Assembly (NCBI RefSeq): GCF_002571385.2
Contig: NW_019218159.1
Coordinates: forward strand, 151,990-215,989
Length of the DNA: 64,000 nucleotides
Source: Stylophora pistillata
Taxonomy: Eukaryota
Direction: 5' to 3'
A model generated the notes under the pieces. That model worked only from the letters and a program-made list of their open reading frames with translations, was not told where the DNA came from and did no database searches. Shown piece by piece: positions 2,808-40,840 of this stretch. The position numbers and the translations under genes were made by a program. Each line of letters begins with the position of its first letter. Position 1 is the first letter of the stretch.

Positions 2808-3194
2808 TTAAATATACGTGGTGACATGGTGATGATGTGACGGTGTTCTTGAATGAAGAGCCTCCTGTGAAGCTCTCATTACTTCTTCATAACTTGGCGG
2901 AGGTGCTACTGTCTCATCTTCGACTTCAATGTACGATTGAGGGGCACTATCTGCGGTGGGATCATAAATTTGATCAAACGCTTCTTCATGTTGCCATGGC
3001 TCGTTCACTGAGTTCATTTCTATCCTATCCACCTGTCCATTTAATTGGATGTCTGTTTCCCTTGGAATCCTATCCGTATTGACAGTTCTTTGTGTTGTGT
3101 TGGCGTTTATGTTATCATTTTCTTCGGCTTCCTCCATTAGTTTTATGCAATGGCAAACAAAAAGTATAAAAGCTAATGCGCCGAAAGCTCCCAT
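2808..3194 (-). CDS. Single-pass membrane PY-motif protein A (128 aa from first ATG; signal anchor, VCHC, PQSY...PPPSYEEV, C-terminal TTYI)
   Basis: The ORF-track start at 3308 is GTG; the first ATG is at 3194 (MGAFGALAFILFVCHCIK). Acidic tail with no Lys after the juxtamembrane K; PY module at the end. Confidence 0.75.
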   Translation of the reverse strand: MGAFGALAFILFVCHCIKLMEEAEENDNINANTTQRTVNTDRIPRETDIQLNGQVDRIEMNSVNEPWQHEEAFDQIYDPTADSAPQSYIEVEDETVAPPPSYEEVMRASQEALHSRTPSHHHHVTTYI

Positions 3195-3247
3195 CGAATA
3201 CAAAAATGATTTGCTCGACCAAATGGAAGAATTGTTCCCGTTGTTTC

Positions 3248-3393
3248 CTGAAAGAATAGAAGGAAGATTAAAGCAGTTGTAGAAAAAGAGCTTGAAAAAG
3301 GAATTCACCTTTGAACGGGACTCGAACCTTGAATTGTTCTGCGAATGAAGCCAAATGGATGCTGGTCAATATTTAATAAACGAGTTTTATATA
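3248..3393 (-). promoter_or_regulatory. Putative TATA box (3385-3393) and 61-nt 5'-UTR intron (3308-3248) of gene A
   Basis: Minus strand shows TATATAAAA, donor AAG|GTGAAT at 3308 and a pyrimidine tract ending TTCTTTCAG| at 3248. Confidence 0.4.
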
Positions 3394-5342
3394 TCTTCAG
3401 TTCCCCTTCACGTAACATTCTGTAGTGCATAAATTTAAGTTCAATTCTCACCGGGATCAAGCGTCTAAAACACAACTGTTTGGGGATAAGCAGCTGAAGC
3501 CTGCTAAAAGATCACTTTACCCGGCAATTGTTTTGGGTCAAAACACGGTACTTCTCCTCGTTCAAAAGTTGAGGTAAAACAGCGAAGTGGCCAGTAATAG
3601 TCTTGTGGCACGACTCCTGCTTTTATGCTGATTTTCACGCTTCTCATACACCATCCACAAAAGCGCGTTTTTGCTCAAAAACTCGCTATTTAACTACTCT
3701 TTGACGCGTTCTTGCATAGACTCAACCATTCAATGCACGTATGTAGTCGAGGCTTCAATTCAGTCACTTTCTTCCCGGCATATCTAGCGTATCGAAAGAG
3801 CATGACTAAATTGCCATTATTTTTTTGTTAACAACGAGCGTTACAACCGGCAAGTAAAGTCCGCATTCGTCTTCAGTAATCAGCAGTTCTATCTATGCTT
3901 ATTCCACCCTGGAATTATGGGGGAAATCAGACAAATCAACCTTAATTAAACTTATTTTTTTCGAGTAGAAGGCCGGTTTATCCGGATGGAATACGAATAC
4001 TAAAGAGTCGTAAGTCCTTGGTGGACTACAATCGTCGATTTCGATACACACGTTGAGGCAAGAATCACGGATATAAGAACATGTAAACCTCTGTTTTGAT
4101 AATCACTGAAACGAAACTCACCAGTACAATGGCTTGGAATACCCGTCTGACACCCTGAAGACGCATACTTGTGCGTGAAGAAGTACAGAATCTGAAAAAA
4201 TAGAATTTTTGATCTCATTATCATGTAACCTTCTGAGTACGTCTATATCAGCATACCTCTAAGGAAAAATAGCACTCTGCATTCATTCCGTTAGCTTCAA
4301 AGTCTTCCCTCAACTGAACGTCAGCAATATTAACTGTTCAGAATACTTTTCAGGAAATTTTCGGTCATTACGCATTTGAATATTGGCTTCAGATCTAGAG
4401 CTACCCTTATCTACATGTTTTCCTTATAGTCCTCGGCGCGTTGACGTTCACCTTGTAATTTACATTTTTTTAACTGGAAGGAATCCCTTTTATGCTTTGT
4501 TGCTTAAAAAAAGAAAAGAGGACAGAATCTGATAAATTGGGGCTTTACTTTCCATTCCCCTTACGTAGAAGGGATGACATAGTAGATAAAAGTACAAAAA
4601 GTCCTATATTTGTACCTCGCGATTTTTCCTTATATCATGGTAATCTAACTGACCCTTGATCTAATTTATGTACAGTAAAAGCGGTTGCTTAATCGATATT
4701 GAATCTTTACGAAAATTTAGAATTGGAACTGCAAATGGAGGTTCAAGTGGCGGAGAATGCCTGTCGGCTGAAAGATGATCGTAATTTGAAGGAAAAGTAC
4801 TTATAACTGACTGACCGAAGACTGAAACGGGGATTTACTGACAGACTAACAAGCTGTCTGATTGATTGACTGATCTACTGACTGATTGATAAATTGAGAG
4901 ATTTATATTTTCCTCCCAAAACCTTGTGTTGATAAAACTTTCATTTCTCCTACAAACAGGTCTCAAGAAGTTTTCTGGCATATTTTTTTCCAAAGCACTC
5001 GTGACTGTTACGTTCCACGGTTACTCCAATTCAAAGCACTCGACGACAGCTAAGACCAGATGTGACAAAAGCAGCGGACAAAGCGTACCGCGCTAGATTG
5101 CGTGACTGAAGTGAGTTGCGTGATGTCTCATTCACATCGCGCACACAGCTTCGGGACTTCAGTCGTAACGAAAATTTTCACTTTGAGGAAAGTTGTCACT
5201 ACCATCATCAGTTGAGTGTGGCGCGGACAAAGTTTGGTGTCGAGGTTTTGACCGTGAAATAAAGGTCTTCTCACGGGCAACCTTCCTCGTTTCCAATGGT
5301 TACCGAATCTAAAATGCCGTGCGTCAACCATCAAACGAGAAA

Positions 5343-5442
5343 TCCATTCACTGTAACGAAGGACTAACGCTCGAAAAGTCAGCTATAAAACACTTTACGA
5401 TGGCCAATTTACACCATGAACTCAGTGGACAGAACCAAAATT
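5343..5442 (+). mobile_element. Penelope-like element terminal fragment with degenerate minimal hammerhead and 16-bp TSD
   Basis: CTGTAACGAAGGACTAACGCTCGAAAAGTCAGC resembles the copy at 52740-52773 and shares its downstream sequence. ACCATCAAACGAGAAA is duplicated at 5327-5342 and 5443-5458. Confidence 0.7.
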
Positions 5443-5881
5443 ACCATCAAACGAGAAAGTCTGCTAAGAGAATGATTCAAACACATTGCCCCTGGAAACA
5501 GAGCTAGATGCCGTGACAACAACACGATTTTAAGTTCAAAACGTCAAACTTCCGTCGCGCCACAATCGGCTGAAATTCGTAGTAAAAACTAATCTTGGCT
5601 TTGTTTTTTCACAACCACATGCATACAATCTATATAAATATTAACATAAAATTGTTATAAAATACTCTCTTCGTTGAATGGTTTTCCCCGTTCAAAGATT
5701 ATATTCCCAAATCTATAAAATACGCAAAAATTGGCATAAATAATCCGCTTCAAGTTTTTCGATAGTGTGAATGCGTAAGTTCTTGACAGGGGTAGAAATG
5801 ACACTGGACTGCTTTAGCTCAATGTTTCCGAAACTGAAAACAAGTAGCCCCTGTTCATTTATGTTTATGCGAGATTTTAAG

Positions 5882-6313
5882 TCATGTCCCGGCCAAATTC
5901 TCATTAGAAAGCCTCAGGGCCTCCTCATAGCTCGGTGGAGGCAATTCATCCGTTGCTAAACATCTGTACGACGGCGGACCGCAATCTGCAATAGCATCAG
6001 GGCTCATCGGGAATACAGGAACACTTTCCTCGACTTGATCTTCAGCTGAATGCGACGTCGGCTCTTCGCGAGCAGCGGCGGCGGCGGCGGTTGAGTTAGA
6101 ATTTCCAGCAGCCCCCTGTAATCCAAATACGTATACGGGACTTGTGCCCCTGGTTTGGTTCGCATGAGTCCCAGCCGCTTGCTGCTGTACGCTAAGATTG
6201 GCAGCACGCTCTTGTTCTCTTCGCTTTAACGAAGCAAAATGGCAACAAAATCCAATGACAATGGCGACCACAAGAACCAAAACAATGACCAAAACTTGGC
6301 CGACATCCGCCAT
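5882..6313 (-). CDS. Single-pass membrane PY-motif protein B (143 aa; TM-GFCCH-KRR, PPSY...PPPSYEEA)
   Basis: First ATG at 6313 (track start is GTG). TM VLVIVLVLVVAIVIGF; clear paralogue of 9771-10169. Confidence 0.85.
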   Translation of the reverse strand: MADVGQVLVIVLVLVVAIVIGFCCHFASLKRREQERAANLSVQQQAAGTHANQTRGTSPVYVFGLQGAAGNSNSTAAAAAAREEPTSHSAEDQVEESVPVFPMSPDAIADCGPPSYRCLATDELPPPSYEEALRLSNENLAGT

Positions 6314-6721
6314 CCCGAATTGAAGTTTAGAGCGAACTCTTCGAGGGCACACTTTGAGAACAAATCCCGAGATGCAGGGTGGACATCTTCAAATATTTTC
6401 AAATCCCTTCGAAAGCGTTTTATCACAAAACAGCTGGTCCACTAACTCTAGTGAATCCTTTGCCTGCCAATCTAGTCTCTTGCATGGACGGTTAGTCACT
6501 CAAAGAATTCAATGTTTTTTTCTAGTTGTTGTTGATACAAACTTAAGCAGCAGTTTAAGAGTCCAGTGCATATATTTTTCAGTTTCTAGGGCCGTCTCAC
6601 AGCCAATCGCAACTGGTTCGAAATTGATCTGTAAGCCGCCATTTTCAATACGAAGGTCTCATTCGTAAATTATGCAAATACTTATGTAAATGATGGTCGT
6701 GCGAATATTAATAATCAGAGT

Positions 6722-7977
6722 GAATGTCAGACAATTCGCCCCTTGGACAATTAGCCCCAGACGATTAGCCCCCAGTCTCAGTAAATGTAAAGGAGAAGTT
6801 ACGTCTATCTTTTGGTCATTGACTTTAATGAGTTTGTGGCTCCTAAAGGAGGTTTTTTTTTTGTGAATGGTTATCTTTACTAAAATTTACTTAATTTTTA
6901 CTTAATTTAATTTACATGGGTTGCACGAGGTGAGCACAGGCCTCCAGAAGTTTTTTTGAGTTCCTTTGGCCGTCTTCATATTGAATCCAGAGGTCGAAGA
7001 GTCTTATCTACATTGTTCGTTAGGTTGACCGCTGATGTCTCTTCTGCTTTTTGTCTGAAACCAGACGGATCTGCATGTTCACCAATGTAGCTTCCCGATG
7101 AAGTACCTGGATCAGGATGTACAGGGGCAGCTGTGATCAGTTGTTGCTGAATAAGCTAATATGAGTATCCACAATTGAAGGATCCCTTTTGTACACATCC
7201 CGAGGATCAAGATTTTTACTTCGAACGAAACACGCCATTTGATTGGAGAAATGTTAATTTAAGAAAACAGTAAGCACTGAATTGGGATGAATGAAATGTC
7301 TCACGTCAAATTTACAGAAGTTCGCACATTGCGCGTGGGTTTGAAATAAACAATGAAATACCAATTAGTAAAAGTTCGCGCATTTTGCGAGGCTTTGAAA
7401 TTAACAACAAGGAATAAAATTACGCACCTTGCGCATGGGTTTGAAATAAGCAAACAAGAATGAGTAAACGTTCGCACATTGCGCATGGGTTTTCAATAAA
7501 CAAATAAATAATAATCAGTAAAAGTTCGCACAATGCGCGTGGCGAGTTTGAAATAAACCCCCATTGACATTAACAAGTAGTCGCCAATAAGTTAAAGTTT
7601 CGAAGTTTTGTTCCTGGTTTCTTTCCTTTCCTATTTAAGTTCTCGAAATAAACAACATGACGAAGAAACATTCGTAAAATATGTAAACAGAAGGAACACA
7701 GTTCACTTTTGTAAAATATACTTTATAATTCGACACGCACGGCAGAGAAACGTTCGTAAGAAGCAAATAACAAGAACATTGTTTATTTCAAAATACATGA
7801 TAGGGAAACGTTCGTAAAGTAAACACCAAGAGCATAGTTTATTTCAAGGATGGTGGTTTGGAGGCTAATAGTCCAGAGACTGGGGGCTAATAGTCCAGAT
7901 ACAGGGGGCTAATCGTCCAAAGACTGGGGGCCAATCGTCTGGGACTAATTGTCCAGGGGGCGAGTTGTCCGGATACC
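6722..7977. mobile_element. Non-autonomous DNA transposon with repetitive TIRs and 8-bp TSD (superfamily uncertain)
   Basis: GACAATTCGCCCCTTGGACAATTAGCCCCAGACGATT is inverted at the right end. TSD ATCAGAGT at 6714-6721 and 7978-7985. Internal repeats of GTTCGCACATTGCGC at about 7320-7560. Confidence 0.8.
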
Positions 7978-9770: not shown

Positions 9771-10169
9771 TCACGGCTTCCTCATAGCTTCCTCATAGCT
9801 TGGTGGTGGAGGTTCATTTGAAACGGCTATGTACGGTGGGGGGCCACTGTCTGCAATAGCATCAGGGCTTCTTAGACTTTCGTCGTGATCTTGATTAACA
9901 TCTTCTTCAACTCTTGGGCTCCTCCGTTGATGAGCAGTTCCAGTTGAGTCTGAAGTTGAACTAGCTCCTCGAAGTCCAAATATGTAAACGGAACCTGTCT
10001 CGCTTTGGTTTGCATAACCAGAAGGTTGAGCTACAACTTGTTGCGTGGCCCTTCGCCTCGCGACTTCCCCTCTCCGCTTCTGAGCAATTCTGTGACAACA
10101 ACATCCAACTGTGATGGCGAAAAGCAGGATAAACAAAACGATGAAGAGAGTTTGAAAGAGTTCAGACAT
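9771..10169 (-). CDS. Single-pass membrane PY-motif protein C (132 aa; TM-GCCCH-KRR, PPPY...PPPPSYEEA)
   Basis: ATG start and hydrophobic signal anchor. Shares ANQ...VY[VI]FGL.GA and SPDAIAD.GPP.Y blocks with protein B. Confidence 0.88.
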   Translation of the reverse strand: MSELFQTLFIVLFILLFAITVGCCCHRIAQKRRGEVARRRATQQVVAQPSGYANQSETGSVYIFGLRGASSTSDSTGTAHQRRSPRVEEDVNQDHDESLRSPDAIADSGPPPYIAVSNEPPPPSYEEAMRKP

Positions 10170-11079
10170 ACCGGAATAGGGTCAACAGCACAATCAACAA
10201 CAGAATCGAAAGGAACAAAGTCCTTCTCGTAAAAAATTCAACCGGATCCTTGAAGATGTCTGTTCCGATCTTGACTTATCTTTTCACCGGCGAAGTACAT
10301 TAATATCATAAATAGCTATCCGAGCATAACTTATCGTTCCTTGAGATTGAGATTCTTGAAAGAAGTCACTAGCAGGATTTACTCCATCTTTTGGTGGGGT
10401 CCCTAAGTAAGAACAGCCTTGTTTTGCAGAGAGTTCTTTCTGCTGACCGCCATTTTTATTTAGACTCAGCTGGTCACGCAACCTCACCGATCCCGATCTG
10501 CATCTTCCGCGACCAATGGACATTTACATGCTTATTACAACTACACCCAACAGACAGCTGCTAGTTTTTGTCCGCCTGTAGACAGAAGCAAACTCTATTT
10601 TAAGTGTACACCATCCCTATCACCAATATAATTATATCTAATTTCATGAATTTAATTACTTAGTCCGTGTTTAGGTAAGCCCTTTTTCATCCAAACCACC
10701 GAAATTTATCACCTAGTAACTACATTATAACAGATAAAATACGCAGAAATGACGTTGACAATTTTTAAATTGTGTTTCCGTAATTTGGCGATGTTTTTTT
10801 AAAGCCTCCTTTTCTCTTCATTTTCCCCAGAGCGAACGCATCAAAATTGGTGCAATTTGGTTAAGGCAAATTGCATCGCAAGGGAATAGGGAAGAAAGAG
10901 ATGATAAAAGTATTCATTACACGACTCGGGCAGTCAGAGGGCCAATAACTAAAATCAACCAATCAAAATGCTCTATTGCCGGTCAATATTCGCTCAGTAT
11001 TGGACCGGGCACTGTCCCGAATGGTCCCGAATGATACCGCACTTGTGTCCTTTTGAACTTCAGTCGTATAATAAATCTC

Positions 11080-11221
11080 TTATTAACCAAGCTTGCTCGG
11101 GACCGTACTGGAAGAATATCGGCCTTCGGTCTTTTTTGTACGGTCCTCGCTGCGCTCGGTCGGTACTGTCAAGACCTTGGGCCGATATTCTCCCGGTACG
11201 GCCCTCGCGCTTGGTTAATAA
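11080..11221. repeat. Palindromic MITE-like unit within a composite repeat (about 10920-11600)
   Basis: TTATTAACCAAGC...GCTTGGTTAATAA with internal inverted AGAATATCGGCC/GGCCGATATTCT; a related copy follows from about 11272. Confidence 0.6.
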
Positions 11222-11619
11222 GATATATGAATAGTGAGAACAAACTCTGAAACTTGACGAATAGTAACTTCTTACTAAACAAGCGCGAGGGCCTTATGGG
11301 AATTATCAGCCCAAGATCATAGCAGTACGGACCGAGCACAGCGAGGTCCTTACAAAAATGATATTCCATACAAACACAATATTTCCTCCGTTAGGCTCGA
11401 GCAAGTGAGGCAAGTAAGTAGTTTATCATGTGGCATTCGGACTGAACTTGGTTATTTTGAATTTACCGGCTTTCAAGAACAAACATTAACGGCGTATGAA
11501 CGTTTCCATGGAAAAGGTCCGTATGACTAAATCCCGACCATGTAATATAAGAACAAATCAGAACGCGCAGATTTACCTCAAGACTTCCTTACCAAATAAT
11601 AATGTGCGATATCTTGACT

Positions 11620-12260
11620 TTTTGGACAGATCACTCACCACTCCAGCCCAAACCCCTGTTATCGTTGAGCGCTCATTTACGATCAGCAGGTCAAGTCAAG
11701 AGCTTTGTTCGATTAGTGTTTCAGTCACGATCACAATAAGCAGAAGCTCAGTTAAGAGTAACCTAGTTTTTTTAATGTCAACTTTTAATGCAGGAAATCA
11801 ACTAACATGGCGCTGTGAAAGGCTTGTACAGATCGGTATTGCCATGTTTATAAAGTTCGGCTCTACTCCGGCCGAATTGAGTGTCCAAAATGTATTAAAT
11901 GTGCATATTTCAATCATGAAATTCTCTATTCTACAAGAACTTTGTGTAATATGCAAACTGTATCGTGAAAAATTGTGTACATTCACTACTTGTTAATGTA
12001 ATTATGAATTCTTTAAAACTGCTGTCTTAAAATGTGACTGTTTAAGGATCACACTTTTCTCTGGAGACCTTCTTCCAATAAAAATATCCTTCCGGCGTAA
12101 CAGAACAACACAACCACGTGCGTATCCACGTCGCCATGATCTGCATACTTGTTCGACGATTTGTCCACAGGTTACAATCGCTTGATGACAGAAAAATCTG
12201 TGTTGTTCAACCAGCGGCGTTTCACAAACAGTCAGATTTATTTTGCTAGAGTAACAAGCC
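11620..12260 (-). mobile_element. Highly degenerate LINE (CR1/L2-type) AP-endonuclease fragment
   Basis: Broken frames give RRGYARGCVVLL and SS*LDLLIVN...GV...SD, resembling APE-domain motifs. Confidence 0.35.
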
Positions 12261-12660: not shown

Positions 12661-13011
12661 TCATGAACTCGACTGCGAAGAAACTTGCGTTAGATCTGCT
12701 AAAGCGCCTTGTCCGGGATGCTCGTGCCTACGAACAACTCTTGACATCCTCGATGGATCCCTTGGCCACAATCTGTGGCAGAGGAACCCGACTAACATGA
12801 GCAGCAACACGAGTAATACCAACACAACACCGAGAACTAACCAGTTATACAGCTTGTGTTTTTCAGTCAGCTCACAAGCTTCACAAGCCGCTTTTTCTGT
12901 GGCATTTTCCGCGCATAAAGCGAAGGAAAGCATCCATGAACTGAACCCCTCAGCCACAAACATCCACACCGTGAGACGCTTCCATCCCGTGACAATAACG
13001 CGTGCGTCCAT
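12661..13011 (-). CDS. Type I membrane protein D (116 aa; putative signal, CxxC ectodomain, TM-GFLCHR, short tail without PY motifs)
   Basis: AAAAATGG start; TM WLVLGVVLVLLVLLLMLVGFL; juxtamembrane G-x-x-C-H as in B and C; ends in consecutive TGA TAG TAA. Confidence 0.65.
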   Translation of the reverse strand: MDARVIVTGWKRLTVWMFVAEGFSSWMLSFALCAENATEKAACEACELTEKHKLYNWLVLGVVLVLLVLLLMLVGFLCHRLWPRDPSRMSRVVRRHEHPGQGALADLTQVSSQSSS

Positions 13012-15331: not shown

Positions 15332-16165
15332 TCATAATCCAGAGGAACTTTCCCCAGTGTTCGACACTGCTACCTTTAAGACATCTTCGTAGCTTGGCGG
15401 GCTGGGCGAGTTTCCGTACCGCTGATCGCTGTACGGAGGAGGGTCCTCGTTCGTGTTTTGAGTATCGGGAGGAGGTTCGTGGGATTCTTCGAAATCTTCG
15501 CCATCGTCCGATCTGGGCTGAGGTTTGTCGTATGCCGAGTTAAAATCGTAAGGCGGTAAGTGCGCGTGAGGGACATAACAGCCGTTTAAAACTGCATCCA
15601 AGTCTCCATTCAGTGCAAAATTCTCAATTCCCATGTTTGATTCAGCTTGCGACGCATCGTGTCCAGTCAAGTGACGTTCGTTCCAATAATCATCCCCTGT
15701 TTGTGAACCCTGTGTCGTTGCTGAGCGGTTCCGTCGATTTCGCCTTTGTTTTGCACGGGCCAGGCAAAATGAAATCAAGCAAAAGTTTATAAATAGAATT
15801 GAAAATCCCACGAGAGCGATAGCAAATTCTTGGTTTCCTGAGAGCAAACTGTGGCTCGTGGAAGTTAGTTCCGCAGTAGTCTCCACTACTGTTATATATT
15901 TCATGGTCGCGTCCGTCGACGGATTCTGACTTTCTTTACTGTCCGACATTGATTCAACGTAAACACAATTTCCTTGTCGACAAACCTTGCCAGACCCACA
16001 GGAAATGTTTAAACGATCGCAGTCAATAATTTCGACAACTCGACTGTTGTTTTTCCGCGTAGTGTTTTCGCAATTGCTCGATGGAGGCGGACAATCTACA
16101 AAACTTATCGCTAGCTTTGCTTCAAAGGAAATCACCAAAAACAGCACCAAATTCACCGACGTCAT
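15332..16165 (-). CDS. Type I membrane PY-motif protein E (277 aa; signal peptide, 6-Cys ectodomain, S/T stalk, TM, LPPY/PPPY/PPSYEDV)
   Basis: First ATG at 16165 (track start is GTG). Signal MTSVNLVLFLVISFEAKLAIS; CDRLNISCGSGKVCRQGNC; TM FAIALVGFSILFINFCLISFCL followed by a basic cluster. Confidence 0.88.
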   Translation of the reverse strand: MTSVNLVLFLVISFEAKLAISFVDCPPPSSNCENTTRKNNSRVVEIIDCDRLNISCGSGKVCRQGNCVYVESMSDSKESQNPSTDATMKYITVVETTAELTSTSHSLLSGNQEFAIALVGFSILFINFCLISFCLARAKQRRNRRNRSATTQGSQTGDDYWNERHLTGHDASQAESNMGIENFALNGDLDAVLNGCYVPHAHLPPYDFNSAYDKPQPRSDDGEDFEESHEPPPDTQNTNEDPPPYSDQRYGNSPSPPSYEDVLKVAVSNTGESSSGL

Positions 16166-17319
16166 TTCTAAGCTTGAATCCTTAGCAGCAACTAAGTTAT
16201 CAATCCTTCCAACAACATCGCGTTTTTGCTTAGTCACAGCAGTCTGGCATATTTCCTCGCAGATATTCCACACGACTGTTCATGTTTTTGTAATTGACTA
16301 GCGATGCGGTAACATTTTCTCAACTCCCGTTGGCTAAAACTTCACTTACTATAAATTATAATTTACATGTGAAAACATACGCCGCTTAGCTACGTAGCCA
16401 AACAATAACAAGGATTTATTAACATTTAGAGCGCACTCTTCGTATTTAGTTTTATTGTTCAACCGTGTGAAACAGCTATTTGTGTTTTTGCTCGAAAAAC
16501 ACAATCAGCCGCAGGATAAAAAAACTGGTGTAGTATTTTCAAGCTTAAAATGAACCACATTCAAAGCGTGCCGAGTTCGACTAAAAAATTCACACGAGAA
16601 AAAACAACACAAGGAAAACCGTGAGGCCGTGGTAATTTATGGTGATGCTTGTAATGCAACCATTACATGAATATGCAAATTTGTAAAAGCAGCAGCATTT
16701 ACTCAAGTCAGAGTTCTGCTCCATTGCCGACGCACATTCGTGATCGCACGTTTCATTAGTAAAATGTTGCTACACACCCTAGGTGGAAATGTAATTATCC
16801 TAATCTGATGTGATCCACATGAACTACAACACACCTTCATGTTTTTCATTTTTGCAGGTCTTAATTTTGGCGATAACAAAAACAGGGCGAAAATTCTAGT
16901 TCGTGGAAAAAAGGTTACCCAAAAAGGAATTTTGAAAAATAATCTATTCATAACTAATAACCTTAAGTGTCAAAGGGAAATGTCTAATAAAATAGATCCT
17001 TTTCTAAACTGGCGTATGAAAATTGAAATGTTCTTAACTGTTTAGACAGGAAATTTGTACCAGCACCCAAATGGCATCCCTTCTTTGGGCAATTTCACAT
17101 TTAAACATAATGATGATGATGATGATAATAATGAAAGTGATAAATGAGATACAATGAAATATATGAAGTTGATATATTTTGAACAGCGGTATGAGATACA
17201 TATGATGTGCGATCCTCGCAGTACATAGCGCTATTTAAGCAATAGCGAAAATCAGACCTGAAAAAAATCAGGCCAATGAGCAAAATGAGCAAACAACGAA
17301 CTATGCCCGAAGGGTAAAA

Positions 17320-18215
17320 CTGAAAGCCAAACACCAAGCTTTAGAACAACTCAAGAGCAAATGGAAAGAAAAGCCTTTGCATGGTCAATACCCAAAAAGA
17401 ACAAAAGAGAAGGATGTAGACCAAGACCAAACCCACTATTGGTTGAGTTCACCTGGCCTCAAACCAGAAACAGAAGGTTTCATTATTGCTGCCCAAGATC
17501 AATGTATTGAGACCAACTATTACCGAAACAAGATCCTGAAAGATAGCACCAACTCAATGTGCAGAATCTGTGGGCAATTTCAAGAAACAATTGACTACCT
17601 TGTCTCCGGATGCCCGGAACTTGCCAACAAAGAGCGTATACAAAGACAGAATAAAGCTGCAGCGTACCTCCACTGGACAATATGCGAACACTACAACATC
17701 AAAGTGCAAGATAAACACTACTGACGAACATGAACCATCTACTGTGACAGAAAAACAAACAGCGACTATACTCTGGGACATGCCAATCCAAACTGATAAA
17801 GAGATAAAGGCAAACAGACCAGACATAGTGGTAAAAGACAAGGAGGAGAGAACTTGTATGCTCATCAATATGTCTATCCCCACAGAAAGGAACACCTCCT
17901 TGAAAACAGCAGAAAAACTCTTCAAGTACAAAGATCTTGAAATCGAAATCGAGAAAATATGGGGGATGAAAACAACAACCGTCCCAGTGATCATTGGAGT
18001 TGTTGGGCTTGTTAAGAAGGGAATGGAAACCTACGTTGGCAAGATCCCACGCAATATCAAAATAGCAGAGCTACAGAAGACCGTTCTCCTTGGAACTGCC
18101 CGTATACTGAGGAGGACTTTATCCATCAAGTAGTCCAGCAGACTTATGACAGCCCTGGGCTCATCGATTGAACTCGGCACCATAAGAAAAAAGAACAAGA
18201 CTTTAAGGAACTACG

Positions 18216-18246
<31 letters not shown>
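17320..18246 (+). mobile_element. 5'-truncated R4/Dong-clade non-LTR retrotransposon (zinc knuckle plus restriction-like endonuclease), frameshifted
   Basis: CRICGQFQETIDYLVSGC, ILWD..IQTD...ANRPDIVV, K..KY.DL; ends in a (TAA)n tail. Confidence 0.85.
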
Positions 18247-18248
<2 letters not shown>

Positions 18249-19561: not shown

Positions 19562-19830
19562 AGCATATAGCTCAACTGGTTAGAGCGCCGGATTTTATTG
19601 TGCGGAAGGTCGAGGGTTCGAGCCCTGGCCGGACCAATACTCATGGTCTTAAAATAACTGCGGAGAATTTGCTGCCTTTCTGTAACAAGAAATGGATAGA
19701 TATTCCAGTCTTCTCGGATAAGGACGAGTAAACCGTAGGTCCCGTCTCCTGAGGGTTAGGGGTAGGAGACGTTAATTTCCCACGCACGAGATTACTGTGT
19801 GGTGGACGTCCTCCCCTGGGGTGGGATGGG
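19562..19830 (+). mobile_element. tRNA-derived SINE
   Basis: A box TAGCTCAACTGG and B box GGTTCGAGCCC, followed by a non-tRNA body. Confidence 0.7.
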
Positions 19831-19832
19831 TG

Positions 19833-19863
19833 NNNNNNNNNNNNNNNNNNNNNNNNNNNNNNN
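19833..19863. other. Assembly gap (31 N)
   Basis: Run of N; a single N also occurs at 18520. Confidence 0.99.
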
Positions 19864-20499
19864 CAGCGGATAAGGATTACAAAACGTACTGCACTATCCA
19901 CCGGATAGAGATTTTTCCAGTGGAAAGCATTATCCACCCTACCGTTTGCCATGGAGATTCCATTTTCCATTTCAAGGCTTGCTTGGTAACACCGTCCAGA
20001 TTTTTCCTCAAGGTGTGACTACTTCCTCCGACTGATTTGTTTTAATTGGCTTCTGACCTTATTTTTCCATAGTTCCATGTTTGTTTTCCTGTCTGCCCAT
20101 CATAATTTCAGAATTCTTCTCAAGCACTTATTGATACATGATTGCAACTTGTTACTTTTTAAACCAGGCATATTTTCATCATGACACTTTCCATATCGTA
20201 ATAAATGCAATTTTGGTCACCAGCTTGAAGAGGAATCAGTTCTCCAATTTGACACTGACTTTCCTTATTGTAATCTGAAAAGCAATTTTGGTCGCCAGCT
20301 TGAAGAAGAATCAGTTCTCCTTTTTGAAGGAGAATTTATTTGAATGCCAGAAACAGATTTTATTCTTTGAATACACTTTTCCCGTAAACGTTTTACTGTT
20401 ATTTACATTGCAGAACTTTTACTTCAAAACATTTAATGCGAGTAGCTTAGCAAGTTACTTATAAGTTCTTATTTTTGTGGAGAGATATAAACAAAGAAC

Positions 20500-23188: not shown

Positions 23189-23770
23189 TTAACCAGCGGT
23201 AGTGATAACAGTAGTTCCTGTTTCTGAATGCTGTAGTAACTGTGAAATCTTCACCACATGCTCGTAAGGAGGGGGAGAGCTTCCGAACAAGATACCATAC
23301 TCTGGTGGTTGTTCATTAGCAGTTTCGGTCCCTACGTTTTCTTCTATGACCGTGCTTTGCATCTCGCCAATACCGTTTAAACTGAAGCTAAAAAGACTAA
23401 AATAAGGCGGAGGACCAGCAGTCATACTCAGAGACGAAAATCGCCGTCGCATTAAATACTCGGGAATTTCCACAGCCGTGCTTGAATCGCATGTGGTGTT
23501 CTCGTTCGATGGTGCGTCGACATTCTGAGACCAAGGTCCTTGTTTGAGGCACACGTAGACCAAAACGATAACCAGTCCAATAATTAATGCCACAGATATA
23601 CTCATAATGATGACGATGATTTCCACTCCGCTACCTGACATATTTGAGGTTTCACATTTGTCGCTACATAGTCCCTGAGAGCACGATTCCAATTCCCCAT
23701 TACACTGCGATGACACACCGATAACGCATGAAACTAAAAACATCGCCATACAAAAACCGAAAAGTTTCAT
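23189..23770 (-). CDS. Type I membrane PY-motif protein F (193 aa; signal peptide, 4-Cys mini-ectodomain, TM, PPPY/PPEY/PPPYEHV)
   Basis: ATG start; signal MKLFGFCMAMFLVSCVIGVSS; C-x6-C-x4-C-x3-C; TM IIVIIMSISVALIIGLVIVLVYVCL; three PPxY motifs. WBP1/VOPP1/Shisa-like architecture. Confidence 0.9.
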   Translation of the reverse strand: MKLFGFCMAMFLVSCVIGVSSQCNGELESCSQGLCSDKCETSNMSGSGVEIIVIIMSISVALIIGLVIVLVYVCLKQGPWSQNVDAPSNENTTCDSSTAVEIPEYLMRRRFSSLSMTAGPPPYFSLFSFSLNGIGEMQSTVIEENVGTETANEQPPEYGILFGSSPPPYEHVVKISQLLQHSETGTTVITTAG

Positions 23771-31794: not shown

Positions 31795-33165
31795 TTAAGT
31801 ATCGGCGCCTGATTTCATCTTTGTATCTTCCCGCGCCCACCACTCCACCCACCAGACTCGTCCCAGCATAACGTTTCTCTTTCGGCCAGGATGCGCCGCG
31901 CTGGCCGGGGTCGAGCGATAGGACGGTAACGCTTCAAAATTCTTTGGGAAAGGCGTCTCATGACGTACTTCTTTCACATAAAAGCTTGAAAACGGCCACC
32001 GAAGGTCCTGTGCTTTGTTTTCGTCCAAATTTGAGGCCAGGTTATCTTCTCGGTGGCTTTCCGTCGGAGGATTTCTGGTATCTTCCGATTGATTAACGAT
32101 TGGGTCTTGTATGGAACCGATCTTACCTTCATCGGGCATGAAACATTTATAAACGGTACGATATTCGTTTGTGTTGGATGAATCTCCGTTTGGATGAATT
32201 ATAAGCCCACCGTCCATAAGTTCTTGAATCTCAGGGTCCACATCTCGTGCCATCTCAAAGCTGCCAGCCCCACTGGAGCCATCATCGTCATTACTTTCGT
32301 CGCTGGATTCCGAAGAAGAACCGTCGCCATTCGGCGGTCGTTCGTTTCCCGTACCCTTCATGGATCCGTTGTCGGAATCGGCTAGCTCATCTGATCGTTC
32401 TCGCTTTATTTTTCTCATTGCCTTACGAACGGCATTTTTTAATGCTTTTTCCGAATTGTTGCTTCCGTGTCCGTCCGATTCGCTGTCACTTCCGTTGTCG
32501 CGTCTACAGATTTTCCTGATATGCGCCTCAAAATCAAACTCGTCTTCGGTTTCTTCTTCCGATGATTCTTCGTCAGACAAAATGGGGGACTCAGTCTCCA
32601 AGTTTTCACCTATGGAACTCCCAGAGTCGCTACTAGCCTCTTTGTACTGTTGCAAAATGGAAGCCACAACCTTCTTCAAATGAGCGCTTGTTTCAGTGTC
32701 CATCGGATCTACATGACGCTCTTCTTCCTTAGCAGCCTGTTTCCTGCTCTGAGCAAGCTTATCCTCCTTTATTTCTACCTGAATCTGCTGCATGTTCATT
32801 GAGGGATTCCTGAAACTAGCAAGGAGCCGAACGGTTTGTTCTTGTAAGGAGATGGAGTCCCACACTTCACTGTCAACGTCCAGCAACCCTACAGAGCTTG
32901 TCAAACCATTCTCGTGTGCTTCGAACGCAGAACGAGTTCCAACCGAGCTCTGTCTCGACAACTGGTGGCTCCTAGTATCGTCAGATCCTCCAGGGGAGGC
33001 TATACTGCAAGCAGAACCGATGCTCCCCCTGGGATAGGAGTTGTAAGATCCCGCGCGATTTCTTGGACTGTTTTTACCCGCTGATGATTCATTTTCATCC
33101 GAACTCACCATGTAAGCTCCTTCTTTGCCTTTGCTCCAGAAACGTTTGCGTCTAAAAATGGACAT
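31795..33165 (-). CDS. Uncharacterised 456-aa acidic, largely disordered protein with uninterrupted CDS
   Basis: 1371-nt ATG ORF, more GC-rich than its flanks. Upstream acceptor TTGTTCTCTTTCAG| at 33265 suggests a 5'-UTR intron. No TM segment; LPSY and a Trp-rich motif near the C-terminus. Confidence 0.8.
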   Translation of the reverse strand: MSIFRRKRFWSKGKEGAYMVSSDENESSAGKNSPRNRAGSYNSYPRGSIGSACSIASPGGSDDTRSHQLSRQSSVGTRSAFEAHENGLTSSVGLLDVDSEVWDSISLQEQTVRLLASFRNPSMNMQQIQVEIKEDKLAQSRKQAAKEEERHVDPMDTETSAHLKKVVASILQQYKEASSDSGSSIGENLETESPILSDEESSEEETEDEFDFEAHIRKICRRDNGSDSESDGHGSNNSEKALKNAVRKAMRKIKRERSDELADSDNGSMKGTGNERPPNGDGSSSESSDESNDDDGSSGAGSFEMARDVDPEIQELMDGGLIIHPNGDSSNTNEYRTVYKCFMPDEGKIGSIQDPIVNQSEDTRNPPTESHREDNLASNLDENKAQDLRWPFSSFYVKEVRHETPFPKNFEALPSYRSTPASAAHPGRKRNVMLGRVWWVEWWAREDTKMKSGADT

Positions 33166-36100
33166 GATTGTAATCAGAGGTAAATCTTGGCATATTTCTG
33201 GTAAACAAAGTTGAGCTCAAACAGTGCAGATTGCTGCAAACAACCGCGCACGAGTACAATCTTTCTGAAAGAGAACAAACGTTCGCAATTAGTTGAATTC
33301 TCTTCACTCTCTGAGAGAACGAAAAACAATTATGCTGCTTTTAACGCAAGCTGAGCGTCAAAAAAACGTGAGAGGTTTAACTGAGAAACAGGTGTTGATA
33401 AAGCAATTACTTCATCGAATTACCATGATAACAGTACTCAAGTTCGTTTTTTTCCCGGCTTTTCTTTTCTTTTTTTCTCTCTTTAATAAAAGATACGGAT
33501 AAATACGAAAACATCATTTATCACGCTGTTGATTTCAGATTTCTCGGTCTTTTGTCTTATTTCATTATTTGTTACTCTTATTTTTGTTTCTTTGCGACAA
33601 CAATACATTAACCAGCCGAAAAGTTAGACTTCCTGTCGTCACAAAGTGAAACGTTCCCTAAATTGGCAAGTTTTAATTTCCTCTTTCGTTTTTTCGAGTT
33701 AAACGCGCCAAATCTCGTAGAGTCTGCAAAGGAGAGAATGTTTTTTAGGTGTTACTCTTTCAGGTAAGACTGATTACAAGATAAACGTTAGATCCGTAGC
33801 TTTAACCGCATCGACTTAAAGACGGAGAATTTTTGGTTTAGACGTCATGGTTCTATGAAGCATGTACAACTTATAATATTGGATTGATGCGCAGGAGCTA
33901 ACTAAGTGAAAACTTTTGTCTGAGAATCACCCGTTTTCACACCGCTAGCAGAATCTAGAAAAATTTAAGGCCTCTTACCAAAAGAGAGGTCGAAAACTTC
34001 CGCAAAAAGCCTTAAAATCAACTGATGAGAGATGTCGGAGGCAATTAAACAATCTAAAATTACCTACACGTTATTAAAAGGAAACTAACCACAGTCACGA
34101 ATTTTTAAAAGCTAGCGCTTATTATGTACATTTTTAAAAGTCCTTTGTAAAGCTAAAAGAACCGACGAAAAGCTTAACATTTAAAGCAGTATGTAAGGTA
34201 AAAGAGAAGAAATTTTGATTCAAACAAATGCACTCTCCCCCTCGAATTAATTCGACTAGGTAAAAAAAAACTTTAAAAACACGAAGGTGCAATAAAATGC
34301 AATATATATATATATATATATATGAACCATATGTATATATGTTTGTCGTTATTGAGGAGAAACCAGATTTTAATCTGGCTTTCACAAGGGACTTTTAAAC
34401 TCTTTAACTCTCAAGAATGATCAAGACGGGATTTCTCCTTACAATATCAATATAATATTAAACAGACAAATCATGAGAATAGAGAAAAATTTCAACAGGT
34501 TACTTTTTGTTGATCCCAATGCCAATTCTCGGGACTAACATCATAAGAATTGTATGGCAGACAGAGAGGAGAAGTAAAGGAGAGATAGAAATGGCAAATA
34601 AATTTGAATTTGAAGTGAATTCTTGTTATGGGGGGGGGGGCGGGGATATTTTAGTAATCTTCATAGATCTTGCTGATCGCGCTTTGCATTCGAATTAATT
34701 TTCTTCCCTCTGTTATTGATACACTACGCAAACAAGCCATTAGGTTATTGCCGTAGGCATGGTTCAAAGTAATGGGTCATTAAAGTCGGATGGAGTTTTG
34801 CGCGATTGTCAACTGAGTGAGATGCATCAAAATTGCCGGCCATAATTTCATTTTAGCCGTAAGGCAGTAATTCTTCATCAACACCTAAAGGTAGCTAGGA
34901 CAATATTGTGGTAGCAGATACATTAATTGGTGTCTTTGTCATCGTTATGAAAATTATTTTCGGCTTCTAGAAACATCAAAACGTTGATCATCTTTGTACC
35001 GGATAATCCATGTAACATACAACGGCTTCGGAACCGAAAGGAGTTTGACTCCAAAATGAGGACAACAAGAAAAGAACCCCATGGTTAAGTGAACAGAAAG
35101 TGAAGCTCACGTGTCGCTTGAAATCTGTCCTTTGTACGTTGCAGATAGAGTGAATCGGATATATAAAAAGAATGATCCTTGATTTGTGGATGATTGTTGA
35201 CGAATCGAAACTTGTTGTTAAACAGCAATTTAAAATATTTCAGAAAGTAACCCACAGTTAAAGAATTCAGGCTTTGAACTGGCCTGTACCTGCGTCTTTT
35301 AGATACTCGTTCAGAGCTACTGCTAACTGAACCACAAAGCCTCATGTTGGGTTCGAGGCAACATGTAATTGGATTTTTTTGTTACCCGTTTTATCACACG
35401 TTAGATTTATACCATTGATTGCGTTACCAGCGACCGAGCTTTGAAGTTAAATCACAGCCATTAGGATTAGGCAAGTTATAATGCCTGGTCGAATCTTAAG
35501 TTCTTCTTTTACCATGCAGACACACCACACACACATATCGCACACACATCGCGTTCACATCGCACACACTTACACTTTGCATACGGTAAGAGCGGAGCAA
35601 CGCAGAAAGAAAAGTTATCACTAATCAACACGTCTCTTACTCGTCAGACAGAATTTGTTATTTCTGGCGGGCACATAACATTGTACATTATATACAGAGC
35701 CGACAAAAGAAGACAAAAAAACACACAAAAATTATGGTTTTTCAATACAGCAAACAAACTACCAATAAGCCCGTAAACTAAGTTGGAAGCAGTTCAAGAC
35801 AACATTCATTAACTGTGCAAACCACGAAACAAAAAGGATAAATGTACTTTGCACGTTGACGATACTTCATGCTCTCGTTCATTATTGGCGAATTCTTAAC
35901 ATAGGCTATATGTTTATTTGTACCTTTTCATTTGTTCAGATCTTTTCTCTGTGGCAGTGCTGGCCAAACTATTGAAATCAACTCTGATAGAATTTAAATT
36001 ACGAAGGCTTAAATTTTAATTTTTGAAGCGACGAGCCTTAGTTAGAAATATGATCAGAAGCTTGATGCATTACACCTGTCTCAAATAGTTAGCAATTTTA

Positions 36101-38943
36101 CACCCCCTTTCAAGATGACTGGAAGCTTTTCCGAATTTAGTCAGTTCAAACTAAATTTGTTGCATAGCCAGCCCCATTGCATAGAATTATTGATCGAACG
36201 CTCGAAAAGTAGAACTCGACCATAAATGTTCGACTATGTATGAAAATATGATACGAAATTCCATACAAAATAATTTGTAGAAATTTTACTTCGACTTTTG
36301 GTGCCTCTGGCCCTTAAGCTTGAGTTTTTTGTGAAGTTTTTTAGAACGTAATAATTTTGTTTAACTGCAGCAAAATCAGCCATGTTTTCACTAATTTAAA
36401 ACATTGAGGCTTCCTGCATCGATAATACAATATATTGGAAGATGGCTTCGCACCAGAACTGCTGGCCTGTTATCATGTAAAACTTTAAAATTTGTAGAGA
36501 TACTTAAAATTAGTTGTTTAAACAGCTATACTTCGAGACTCTTTTATGCACACTTACATGCAATATTGAGGCTCTGAAACACCGAACACTTCTAGTCTCT
36601 GATTTCCAGGTCAATTCCTTTTCAGCCAGCTCGGTTGCGAAATTAACAGTCGAGCGTATTCTTTTTTGAATAAAATTTGTAATGGATCTCACCTGTCACT
36701 TTATGCAAAGGCGACGTCGTTGCCATGGAAAAGACTCTAGTCCGCAGGTGTATTACTTGGTTTTGGACTCTTTCAATTATGTGAACAAAGCTCTTCTCCT
36801 TCGCTAATACTTTCCTTGACACAATATACATTATCACAAACAGAAGACAAACGTGCTTAAAAACATTTGTTATATTTACTGACTTATACAAATTAAGCTA
36901 TGCAACTACTGGCTCATCTAAAACTTCCCTGCTTCCATATAGATTAAGCCAGCCGAAAAATGAAAGAAATACGAAGGCCAAGAAAATTTTTTTTTATTAT
37001 TATTATTTTTTTCTGGCAAGGACTCTTTTGGCCTTCATAAAGCAAAATGAGATTTTAAAGAACAAAAACAAACCAATAAATCGAAAACAGCGTCATGTCA
37101 TCATCTCCGTTATTTCCTATTTTGGAAAAGGGGAAAAATCACAGATAAATATAGAAATAAATAATTTTAAGTGCAAGCAGTAGCATTAATTTGTTTTAAA
37201 TCAATGATCTACTGACGTATTTACTTTTCAGGACAATTCTAGAAACGACAAACACATTACCGAATGGTCACTAAGAATAGAGACCTGTATGTTTAGAAAT
37301 CACCTATGTGTCCCGTGTTTGAAACACGTATGTTTTGAAGAATACGATTTTTAACCTTTGAAGTTGGTTTAATTCTTCCAATTTATAAATATATGTATAC
37401 ATCTATATATGTATGTATGTATAATTTTTTTTATTGTTTTTTTCTTTCTTCTGGTGCGAGTTTTGTCAATCAGTACCACAATTCAATTTTTTTTTTCAGT
37501 TGGTGTACCTAAAAGACTATGAGGATCTCGTCTGTGAGTACGAATCATAAATTAAGATTGCTTTGACACTTTTGATGTTTATATAAAAAGTTTGCCAATT
37601 TTGGCTGTGATATTTTTTATTTGCTTTACCTCTCGACTCATTATCAATAATCAATCTTCCACGATGCCTCTACAAACTGAATAAAACTTTCACTGCGCAC
37701 TGTGACGTAGTGTTATAATAATAAAAAAAAAAACACCTACTCCCAGTGGTTTGCGTCACGTCAAAAATACCTTTCCCCACCCCCCTGAGCTTTAATAGTC
37801 ATCACCGACAATCAGCCGATCGCAACTGACTGAACGCCTGAACGAAATGAACTCCAGAAGCCTTTCTCTCTTCTGAAAATAAAACCATAGCAACGACCAC
37901 TAGTTTGACAAGGGAATTAAATCAGTATTGGTAAAACCAATTCAGTCATTCATTCAACGAACTATAAATCTTGTTTTTTTTTTAAGAAAACAGCTTTCCT
38001 AAGTCAGGGATGATACAACATAATTTGTCTACTTAACGTAAACAGTCCAAAATTATAAATTATTTTTATTTACAGGTATAGGGCAGTAGTCGTTTGACGA
38101 TGATTCAAAATCTTTATATATAATCTTTTCTTGAAAGAATTGCTTTCTTAAAAAATATGTTTTAAAAAACAAATATCACATCATGGAGGGTTTCACGGAC
38201 ATACTTGCCTCCAGTTCCTTCCTTGGTTTGTTTCATCTTTCCGGTGGATCTGTTATCGAAATTGCTAAGATCACTATAGAAAATGGATGCAACGATATCA
38301 AGAGACCATAGTCTCTTGGACGATATTTGTTTGCATTTGGTCGTAAGGTTTGGCAAAAGCATATTAAAAGCTTTTAACATGGAAAAAAATACGTCGTTTA
38401 CACCACAAGAATTGATTTTTTCCAATCCTTTTTTCCCTTGTTTTAGCTCATAATTTTTTTTTATCCGGCGTTTTCAATGTTGCAAACATGGAACTGATCA
38501 ACACTGATCAACAAACATGGTTCGTCAGTGCCATAGTTTTGGCGCCCCCCCTACAATAATCGCTAATCAGACGCTACTCTCAAGCGCACTTCTTGCCAAA
38601 CAAAGAGAGTTAGCTGTTGCGTGTGCTTCATATTATATTCATTCTGTGAATGATATTCGTCAGTCTGTAGAACTGCAATAGCTGAGGAGTCGCGCTTTTT
38701 TGATGCTCTTGTGTGATTTTGACCTCCTCGATCCCAGCAGTGACTAGATGTGAATATCAAGACATTTTCACACAGAAAAAAGATAAGAAGAAATAGCAAT
38801 ATCAATTGAGAGCTTGAAATCGGAGTTGAAATTAGGGGAAATGTATCGTTGACAAAGCGGAGAATTCATTTTAATTTTTCTTTTTTTGGAGGGGGGGAGG
38901 GAGAGAGGGGGTGTGGTATTCTAATGCAAAAATGCACTAGGAT

Positions 38944-39521
38944 TAGGCCCTTATCGATTGTGCTAGTAAACGTAACATATTATGCTACTAGCAGTGCCCG
39001 ATTTTTTCTAAATTATGCCTAAAATTATGCTCGTTTTTGAACATTGTGCTACTTAATACTTTTTCTTAATGATCATGTATGCTTAAGAATAAAGAACACA
39101 AAACTGGTCCAAAATCAAAATTATATGTATTCATGTCATTTATTGTTAATAAAGCGTCATATTTTCTTAATCTAGAGTTACACACTTGCTCTGATAAGAC
39201 ACAACTAGACACTGCACTTCATTCCAGACTAGAAGCTATGTTAGCGGAACTGGGACCGAAGCAATCTTTACTTCCGGTGTGCTCAGTCCTCTTCACGGCC
39301 AACGACGCAGTATTGCGGTAACCTTACTCCCCTCCCCCAGGCGAATGAAAATGGACTGAAACATGGACAGAACAAATCATGACTCTGGTAATGTTCCCTT
39401 CACTGAAAACTAAAAATATGCCGATTACGCTGGCAGTGCTACTTTTAAAGAAAGAGCACAAATTATGTTCGTTTTTCCAAATTATACCAAAACTTATGCT
39501 AGCACAATCGATAAGGGCATA
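38944..39521. mobile_element. hAT-type MITE
   Basis: TIRs TAGGCCCTTATCGATTGTGCTAG / CTAGCACAATCGATAAGGGCATA; 8-bp TSD ACTAGGAT at 38936-38943 and 39522-39529. Confidence 0.85.
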
Positions 39522-40387
39522 ACTAGGATACATGTGGCTACAATACGCCATGAAAACAAACCGCGGCGACGATTCACTTTGTGTGACGATGAGGATTTTG
39601 TTGAAAATCTTTTGTCTCCGTAGCAGAATTTTGTATACGCAACAGATCGCATAGACTCAGTCTGGCTTGAATATTTACCATGATTTCAGTTATACTTAGT
39701 CGCGGCGACTTGATATACATGTAAAGCTATTTGTCGGAGATAACTAATTGCCTGAGGCCTTGAAGGTTCGTCCTTATAGCGATTTGTAAGTCACGCAATG
39801 ACAGACTGGAGAAACTTTTATTTCATTAAAGAAGCTTGGTACAATGGAACAAAATAAAATTCATACGTTTCCACATAAGCTTCAGAGTGTTTTCCTGTTT
39901 TTGTTTCCTTCTTTCACAATCATTTGCTCCTAATATGACCGCGCTATTTTGAATATTTCAAACTGTCATAAAAATTAGACCATGTTGTCTCCTTTGTGTA
40001 CGAAAATGTCATGGGAACATTTTACCTAAACAATATCAGCCTCTTGCAATCACGCGAAGTAGAAGTGTGTTGTAAAAAATATTTGACTTGTCATCATGAT
40101 ATGTTAATGTCCTGACTTCCTTCACACTTCACTTCTTTCACTCTTCTCTGATCAGATAGAAGCCCTTTGCTCCTCAATTTCGCTTCACCAATGGTTCGTC
40201 GCTTCAATAAAAATTTACAAATAACCTCTTTAAACTGAAGACCAGGCCATACTATTTTCTTGAAATAATTTAAGCATTGATCGATAGACACAAAACTATA
40301 TACATATCTTGCTAGTAAAATGTTTTTGTAGATGAATATAGCTCCTCGTGCTCTCGGTAAAAATTCTCTTGCACCGCTTGTTAATTC

Positions 40388-40840
40388 TCACTGTGCACTC
40401 ACCACGACATCTTCGTATTTAGGCGGTGGACAATAAAACAAAGAACTGTATGAAGGTGGGGGCATTTCCACACTATACGAGTCTTGATCGCTTGTCGTAG
40501 TTTGATTTGTGCTTCCGCGAACCAGTGTTCCATCGTAGGAAGAGGAAATAATTCTTATGGCGCTATTCGAGTTTGGAAGCATCCAGTCCTCAATTCGGCG
40601 ATCTTGTAGTCCATTAGAAAATTCCTCCACAACAGTTGTGGTAGAAATTGCTCCTTGATTACTAGTGTTACTGTCGAACTCGCTGTTTCGTCGGTACGTT
40701 CCAGATTCGACACTGTTTTGTTTACTTTTCAAACAGCTGAAGAGGCGCTTACGAAAAAAGCACGCCATAATCACTAATGCAGCCAACAGCAAGCCAATAG
40801 GTACGGGCCAAATACAGTTAAAAATCGGAGACAGCCGCAT
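40388..40840 (-). CDS. Single-pass membrane PY-motif protein G (150 aa from first ATG; TM-CFFRKR, PPPSYSSLF...PPPKYEDV)
   Basis: First ATG at 40840 (track start is TTG). TM IWPVPIGLLLAALVIMACFF; S/T/N-rich tail; double PY. Confidence 0.8.
   Translation of the reverse strand: MRLSPIFNCIWPVPIGLLLAALVIMACFFRKRLFSCLKSKQNSVESGTYRRNSEFDSNTSNQGAISTTTVVEEFSNGLQDRRIEDWMLPNSNSAIRIISSSYDGTLVRGSTNQTTTSDQDSYSVEMPPPSYSSLFYCPPPKYEDVVVSAQ

Follow-up and report, generated by a model that had tools for sequence, protein, structure and literature searches.

Why should a group of membrane proteins whose tails carry ligase-docking motifs be almost without lysine in those very tails? The question is raised by a stretch of 64,000 nucleotides (hereafter the window) from the genome of the stony coral Stylophora pistillata (assembly GCF_002571385.2, contig NW_019218159.1, here C375:151990-215989), in which seven minus-strand open reading frames (ORFs), A to G, each encode a polar tail behind a single transmembrane (TM) segment, with a PPxY motif in all except D. 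An original prediction, made from the DNA alone, described these tails as lysine deserts and ascribed them to selection to avoid ubiquitylation by a recruited E3 ligase. We confirm that the depletion is real, conserved and specific to lysine; the internal controls are good, and gene D is the one clear exception. The tails of the PPxY members are near lysine-free across species, probably as a means of evading ubiquitylation by a bound ligase of the NEDD4 family.

Lysine is depleted from the distal tails

Taking the distal tail as the residues more than 15 amino acids beyond the TM segment, a recount returned exactly the lysine numbers first claimed for A to G (0/96, 0/102, 1/92, 0/23, 2/127, 1/103 and 1/106 residues, respectively), which together amount to 5 lysines (0.8%) in 649 residues. 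Arginine is used freely in the same residues (30/649), as had been stated; with the juxtamembrane zone included, the tails hold 13 lysines and 51 arginines in 754 residues, and juxtamembrane lysines are present in most families. Lysine is rarer than chance, both against a frequency of 5% (binomial P 1.6e-9) and against the distal C-terminal tails of G protein-coupled receptors (GPCRs) encoded in the same genome (83/1409, 5.9%; Fisher P 2.7e-9), for which 27 of 30 loci had the NPxxY anchor and were used, the three others being left out. The ratio of lysine to arginine, 5:30 in the distal tails of A to G versus 83:142 in GPCR tails, also differs (P 0.007), and the six-frame background of lysine is 6.7%.

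The gap in the A to G tails is lysine-specific and lies at the level of the protein. AAR (lysine) codons occur 5 times in frame, 44 and 34 times in the other frames of the same strand and 15-24 times in antisense frames, and AAY (asparagine) codons occur 33 times in frame, so that AAY:AAR is 33:5 versus a lysine:asparagine ratio of 83:89 in GPCR tails. The premise that lysine codons would abound in AT-rich DNA was overstated, since the tails have 48% GC; on this ground and on the excess of in-frame AAY over AAR, codon or AT bias was rejected as the cause. Likewise, the neighbouring 456-residue ORF, offered as a lysine-rich contrast, has an ordinary lysine content (5.7%).

Measured against published desert thresholds (Szulc 2023), the tails are short. 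The longest lysine-free stretch, in B, spans 113 residues, and no protein from A to G reaches the continuous lysine-free length of at least 150 residues. By the alternative measure, which asks that a single lysine-free stretch take up 50% or more of a protein no shorter than 150 residues, A (61%), F (97/193, 50%) and G (67%) are deserts; in B, C and D the stretch exceeds 50% but the proteins are shorter than 150 residues, and in E it covers 27%. The tails agree with a functional description of a desert in so far as the depletion is conserved in relatives and specific to lysine and not arginine.

Relatives rarely gain lysine

Best BLAST hits divided 163 relatives, from other corals, among A (4), B (34), C (6), D (25), E (29), F (30) and G (35). 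The Desmophyllum relatives of G, E and D have the locus tags 021038, 021042 and 021043, respectively, indicating that the cluster itself is conserved. Variant residues were counted once per alignment column in four families and compared with a one-step codon model. Only 9 of 1257 variant states in the tails were lysine versus 91.8 expected, while arginine appeared 82 times versus 79.1 expected; in the ectodomains lysine accounted for 34 of 491 states versus 31.1 expected (tail versus ectodomain, P 2.9e-12). Relatives thus do not gain lysine freely, and selection against lysine in the tails is supported by the rarity of these gains, by the unaffected arginine and by the lysine-normal ectodomains.

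The families differ in where their few lysines lie. In the B/C family, distal tails hold 2 lysines versus 214 arginines in 4089 residues; 40 of 42 sequences have none, and the two lysines belong to C itself and to a 98% identical copy. The E family has 59 in 3670 residues, 30 of them at K214 and 19 at K264. Distal lysine is absent from 24 of 30 sequences of the F family (11/3225 residues; P0141, with an aberrant C-terminus, was left out), and every one of the 34 in the G family (3834 residues) lies within PPKY. The PPxY motif is kept in all relatives of A (4/4), B (34/34), E (29/29) and G (35/35), in 5/6 of C and 29/30 of F, and in none of D (0/25).

The original prediction also proposed that lysines at the last PPxY motif could be controlled ubiquitylation sites. 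This was rejected for C, F and G and is weak for E from the conservation counts: K131 of C is found in 2/42 sequences, K174 of F in 4/30 and K264 of E in 19/30, and K141 of G is the variable residue of the motif itself (34 lysines and 2 arginines among 36 sequences). A lysine in or beside a motif may be tolerated if it is covered by a bound WW domain. The idea of an acceptor site holds up better for K214 of E, which is invariant (30/30) but follows the first motif, and is the best candidate acceptor.

The cluster continues upstream and includes a family without PPxY

The cluster exceeds the window in which it was first delimited. Upstream, C375:96326-141700 (L033-L038) holds 11 further minus-strand single-pass genes of similar build, most of which encode a signal peptide as well as Cx5Cx5Cx4C modules and a PPxY tail, so that the cluster numbers about 18 genes and spans about 97 kb; downstream, no further PPxY membrane members were found on C375 as far as 315 kb. 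DUF7107 scored above its Pfam cut-off in one of nine upstream ORFs. Two upstream genes, U6 and U11 (C375 ~114588-115200 and 141097-141700), are interrupted by an in-frame stop, which lies within the TM segment in one case and within the tail in the other, and were left out of the lysine counts; they are either pseudogenes or assembly errors. The tails of U10 and U11 resemble that of A. The eight intact upstream PPxY genes have 7 lysines in 737 distal residues versus 45 in 840 ectodomain residues, and the 14 PPxY genes of the cluster together have 12 in 1363.

One upstream gene, N, has no PY motif, and its search returned 12 proteins, 11 of them also PY-less (P0164-P0174), including one from Nematostella. 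The tails of N and these 11 relatives contain 81 lysines in 923 residues (8.8%), while P0175, the sole PPxY match, has two PPSY motifs and no lysine in 88 residues. Gene by gene, the 14 PPxY tails are lower in lysine than the 12 N-family tails (P 8e-6) and than 19 GPCR tails of at least 30 residues (P 4e-5). An N-family ectodomain profile scored seven of eight upstream PPxY members above 100/100 shuffles, although for one member the margin was only 0.1 bit; the ectodomains of D, E and F were not separated from shuffles, so that kinship to N is not shown for these three.

Other PPxY membrane proteins and a candidate ligase

Two motif scans gave 29 matches, comprising six cluster genes, 11 short ORFs, eight non-TM ORFs and four membrane ORFs elsewhere. 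All four of the latter (L013 on C290, L007, L010 and L011) are lysine-poor (3/405 distal residues; the TM segment of L013 was placed by hand, the rule having chosen its signal peptide), which makes lysine poverty a trait of the class, and an oddity peculiar to the cluster was rejected. Three of the four have two hydrophobic segments, and one has an ectodomain that, by eye, presumably consists of CUB- and LDLa-like repeats. The eight non-TM PPxY ORFs have 31 lysines in 735 residues, unevenly spread.

PY motifs and WW domains are a textbook binding pair. The genome encodes a multi-exon WW-HECT gene of the NEDD4 family (C595:119880-129000, minus strand; L082-L083), with WW exons followed by HECT exons above Pfam cut-offs, and a conserved [LP]PxY follows a single TM segment in the tails of all families but D. 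The basic patch after the TM segment points to a C-terminus-in topology, and the motifs suggest that the tails can bind WW domains.

Gene models and surroundings

Table 1. Features of the cluster, in window coordinates except for gene N; distal tails as defined in the text.
Feature	Position	Strand	Description
Gene A, coding exon 2	2808..3246	-	TM segment and tail; PPSY at 2889-2900
Gene A, distal tail	2811-3098	-	0 lysines/96 residues
Gene A, coding exon 1	4122..4224	-	Signal-peptide-like N-terminus; ATG at 4224
Gene B	5882..6313	-	143 residues; N-terminal TM segment with CC end; PPSY at 5966-5977 and 5927-5938
Gene B, distal tail	5885-6190	-	0 lysines/102 residues
Gene C	9771..10169	-	132 residues; PPPY and PPSY; 44% identity to paralogue B
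C-K131	9777-9779	-	Sole distal lysine of C; not conserved (2/42)
Gene D	12661..13011	-	116 residues; single-pass; no PY motif; 38-residue lysine-free tail
Gene E	15332..16165	-	277 residues; signal peptide, Cys module, TM segment; tail with LPPY, PPPY and PPSY
Gene E, distal tail	15335-15715	-	2 lysines/127 residues
E-K214	15524..15526	-	8 residues past the tyrosine of LPPY (first motif); invariant
Gene F	23189..23770	-	193 residues; signal peptide, short Cys ectodomain, TM segment; PPPY, PPEY and PPPY
F-K174	23249-23251	-	Sole distal lysine of F
456-residue acidic ORF	31795..33165	-	No TM segment; 26 lysines (5.7%); local control, outside the cluster
Gene G	40388..40840	-	150 residues; N-terminal TM segment; PPSY and PPKY
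G-K141	40418-40420	-	Sole distal lysine of G; x of PPxY
Gene N	C375:133205-133930 (L037:3205-3930)	-	No PY motif; 7 lysines in a 73-residue tail (P 7.5e-5)

ORF A, first taken for a whole gene, forms exon 2 of a spliced gene of 180 residues whose product is identical in sequence to the S. pistillata RefSeq protein XP_022800887.1 (P0193); the joint across its intron (3246-4121) was seen in three of four runs, with GT..AG borders and an in-frame translation. Among genes A to E, for which RNA contigs were inspected, A, B, C and E were covered in 4/4 runs and D in 3/4; two runs are recorded as polyA RNA and two were guessed to be RNA, and the contigs give neither strand nor level. The ORFs are real, as first argued from the lysine gap, although homologues and RNA contigs show this better. 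One contig of run X1 passes from gene B through exon 1 to exon 2 of gene A (2903-3246, 4121-6601), as would arise from overlapping or read-through transcripts or from merged contigs.

A Pfam scan of A to G gave no family at its cut-off. The disordered-looking 456-residue ORF between F and G has a single LPSY and likewise no Pfam family at cut-off. Gene D ends (12661-12663) in three consecutive stops. Positions 1-1124, 10916-11229, 17100-18133, 19600-19920 and 53695-54471 of the window hold high-copy repeats under very deep contig cover, a tandem repeat with a 244-bp unit (4.6 copies, 99% match) and, by eye, ORF fragments of transposon-derived appearance.

Comparison with known adaptors and lysine deserts

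PY motifs bind the WW domains of Rsp5/NEDD4 ligases, and ubiquitin on membrane proteins acts as a sorting signal (PMC7401822). A close functional parallel is that of yeast Rcr1 and Rcr2, paralogous single-pass proteins with PY motifs whose tail lysines decide between plasma membrane and vacuole: Rcr1 is routed to the vacuole when lysine is added, and Rcr2 to the plasma membrane when its lysines are exchanged for arginine (PMC7401822). The yeast case concerns two genes, as opposed to the coral cluster of about 18, and was established by experiment and not as a conserved depletion; the only link in sequence is a sub-threshold match of one upstream ORF to Pfam RCR (E 0.009).

In build, the coral proteins resemble the Shisa-like/STMC6 adaptors (WBP1, WBP1L, VOPP1, TMEM92 and CYYR1), short single-pass proteins with cysteines at the end of the TM segment and several PPxY motifs in the tail (PMC11399591, PMC5578492), an arrangement also found in B, C, E, F, G and most upstream genes. 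CYYR1 has few lysines, as do the coral tails (PMC11399591), and Pfam WBP-1 is the best match of B, C and P0105 (16.7, 19.3 and 22.4 bits, below the 28.1 cut-off). For an E relative, the Atlas places WBP1-like, VOPP1 and TMEM92 proteins among the neighbours, at 0.78-0.84, which serve as leads only; above 0.9, only the protein's own cluster was returned. Membership in STMC6 was rejected, as the ectodomain pattern C*C*CC*CC (PMC5578492) is absent from all 16 genes tested, the upstream members carrying Cx5Cx5Cx4C modules instead. Commissureless (Comm) and PRRG4, likewise NEDD4 adaptors that cross the membrane once, bear a PSY[D/E]EA-type motif comparable to PPSYEEAL in B (PMC12101832, PMC5578492); they differ in that the coral proteins have no known client, and studies disagree on what Comm's own lysines do. 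By analogy, the coral proteins may work as do the Shisa-like, Comm/PRRG and Rcr adaptors.

Deserts of the ubiquitin system (San1, Slx5, RAD23A, UBQLN1, BAG6 and receptors of CRL ligases) share with the coral tails disorder, conservation, a lysine-specific depletion with arginine kept, and proximity to a ligase, but are soluble and proteasome-linked, whereas the coral tails are membrane-bound and shorter, at most 113 residues (PMC10169902, PMC10665810, PMC13696103). The term NEDD4 does not occur in the available main texts of these three papers, and six adaptor gene names had no match in the available supplements of two desert surveys, whose gene-level tables may lie elsewhere. Literature searches, with most subscription journals outside their coverage, found neither a pairing of PPxY/PY adaptors with lysine-poor tails nor an account of such a cnidarian gene cluster. 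The principle of the lysine desert is known; a version of it that covers PPxY membrane proteins and this cluster was not found in print.

Proposed evasion of a docked ligase and its alternatives

We propose that the PPxY motifs tether a NEDD4-family ligase to the tail, where it would tag any lysine within reach; the ubiquitin would mark the protein for lysosomal sorting and removal, so that lysine would be purged from PPxY tails, with ubiquitin as the probable agent of selection. By analogy with yeast Rcr1/Rcr2, the lysine content of each tail could then set where each paralogue stays: lysine-free members (A, B/C and most upstream genes) would persist at a membrane and hold the ligase there, while E would keep one licensed acceptor, K214. 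The original prediction is supported in part, as regards selection against lysine, with the lysine-rich PY-less N family and the WW-HECT gene also in its favour.

Several observations weigh against this explanation. The D family (26 sequences) lacks PPxY and yet has 3 lysines and 130 arginines in 995 tail residues, so that recruitment of a ligase does not by itself account for the pattern. Two upstream PPxY genes, U10 (4/90) and U5 (3/114), have several lysines, the other six having none; in U10 selection may possibly have relaxed after duplication. Three of the eight non-TM PPxY ORFs are lysine-poor around the motif too. The N family, too, falls short as a neutral control: every one of its 12 tails terminates in an LxxIxE-like motif with acidic residues after it, and as LxxIxE is the docking consensus of PP2A-B56, whose binding is strengthened by basic patches nearby (PMC7108865), the lysines of N may be positively selected, N being a candidate membrane anchor for PP2A-B56. 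The GPCR control consists of multi-pass proteins with arginine-rich tails and is not a proteome-wide matched set, the neutral expectation comes from a crude codon model, and the P values are optimistic because related sequences overstate independence; it is the tenfold effect that constitutes the result. In the literature, two studies conflict over Comm, and in one of them the lysine-free protein behaved like the wild type (PMC12101832), and loss of WWP1/2 left CYYR1 levels unchanged (PMC11399591).

The strongest rival, though an unlikely one, is that the tails avoid ubiquitylation generally, regardless of their own PY motifs, because they occupy a compartment rich in ligases or form complexes with partners that carry PY motifs, and that any long-lived member, D included, loses lysine. 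Gene D speaks for it, since its poor tail contrasts with its ectodomain (46/623) and with the unconserved, lysine-rich extensions (37/464) by which 9 of 25 relatives run more than 10 residues past its stop, and since D adjoins E in Desmophyllum too (021043 and 021042). Yet GPCR tails and the N family keep their lysines, and the D tail, at 38 residues and fairly conserved, offers fewer free positions.

We regard it as rather improbable that the proteins are dedicated sorting adaptors or substrates that are short-lived and broken down along with their cargo or ligase, the role of the desert being to concentrate ubiquitin on one or two licensed lysines. The invariant K214 of E, the lysine or arginine inside PPxY in 36/36 G sequences and the juxtamembrane lysines would fit, as would the PY-dependent turnover of Comm (PMC12101832) and the case of CYYR1, which has five lysines and carries ubiquitin on K154, its last residue (PMC11399591); against it stand the B/C and F sequences without any distal lysine and the poor conservation of the post-motif lysines of C, F and E (K264). 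Ubiquitylation of CYYR1 at K154 is without effect on its level (PMC11399591), and ART adaptors require ubiquitin for activation (PMC9282857). Because the known adaptors Comm, Rcr2 and CYYR1 are themselves ubiquitylated, lysine depletion does not separate adaptor from substrate, and the original conclusion that the proteins are adaptors rather than substrates does not follow from it.

A cause other than ubiquitin, such as net charge, codon bias or an arginine-specific or acetylation-related chemistry of acidic, Pro/Ser-rich disordered tails, is very unlikely: the tails do have this composition, published deserts are rich in Ala, Gly and Pro (PMC10665810) and arginine and lysine differ in phase behaviour (PMC10169902), but lysine variants are tenfold down with arginine at its expected rate, the in-frame codon ratios depart from those of GPCR tails, and the tail of N is more acidic (19 D/E in 73 residues) and still has its seven lysines, net charge being rejected on the first and last of these grounds.

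Implications

Evasion of a docked NEDD4-family ligase thus being the preferred explanation, a broader possibility, which we put forward tentatively, is that lysine content serves as a sorting code across a panel of about 18 cnidarian genes with enzyme-docking tails, in which PPxY members have purged lysine, E keeps one invariant acceptor and the old paralogue N, with its Nematostella relative, is lysine-rich with a PP2A-B56-type LxxIxE motif. The cluster consists of uncharacterised cnidarian genes, among which the tail of B, K214 of E and gene D are the key elements, and it offers a natural comparison of related neighbours with and without a ligase-docking motif, whose tails differ tenfold in lysine (0.9% versus 8.8%). 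The evolutionary origin of lysine deserts is, according to a 2026 review, incompletely understood (PMC13696103), and published work centres on soluble, proteasome-linked proteins; the coral case extends it to membrane adaptors and lysosomal sorting. If lysine content does act as a sorting code, its depletion would be a general and hitherto unrecognised signature of PPxY membrane adaptors, and could be used to find such adaptors and to tell them from substrates.

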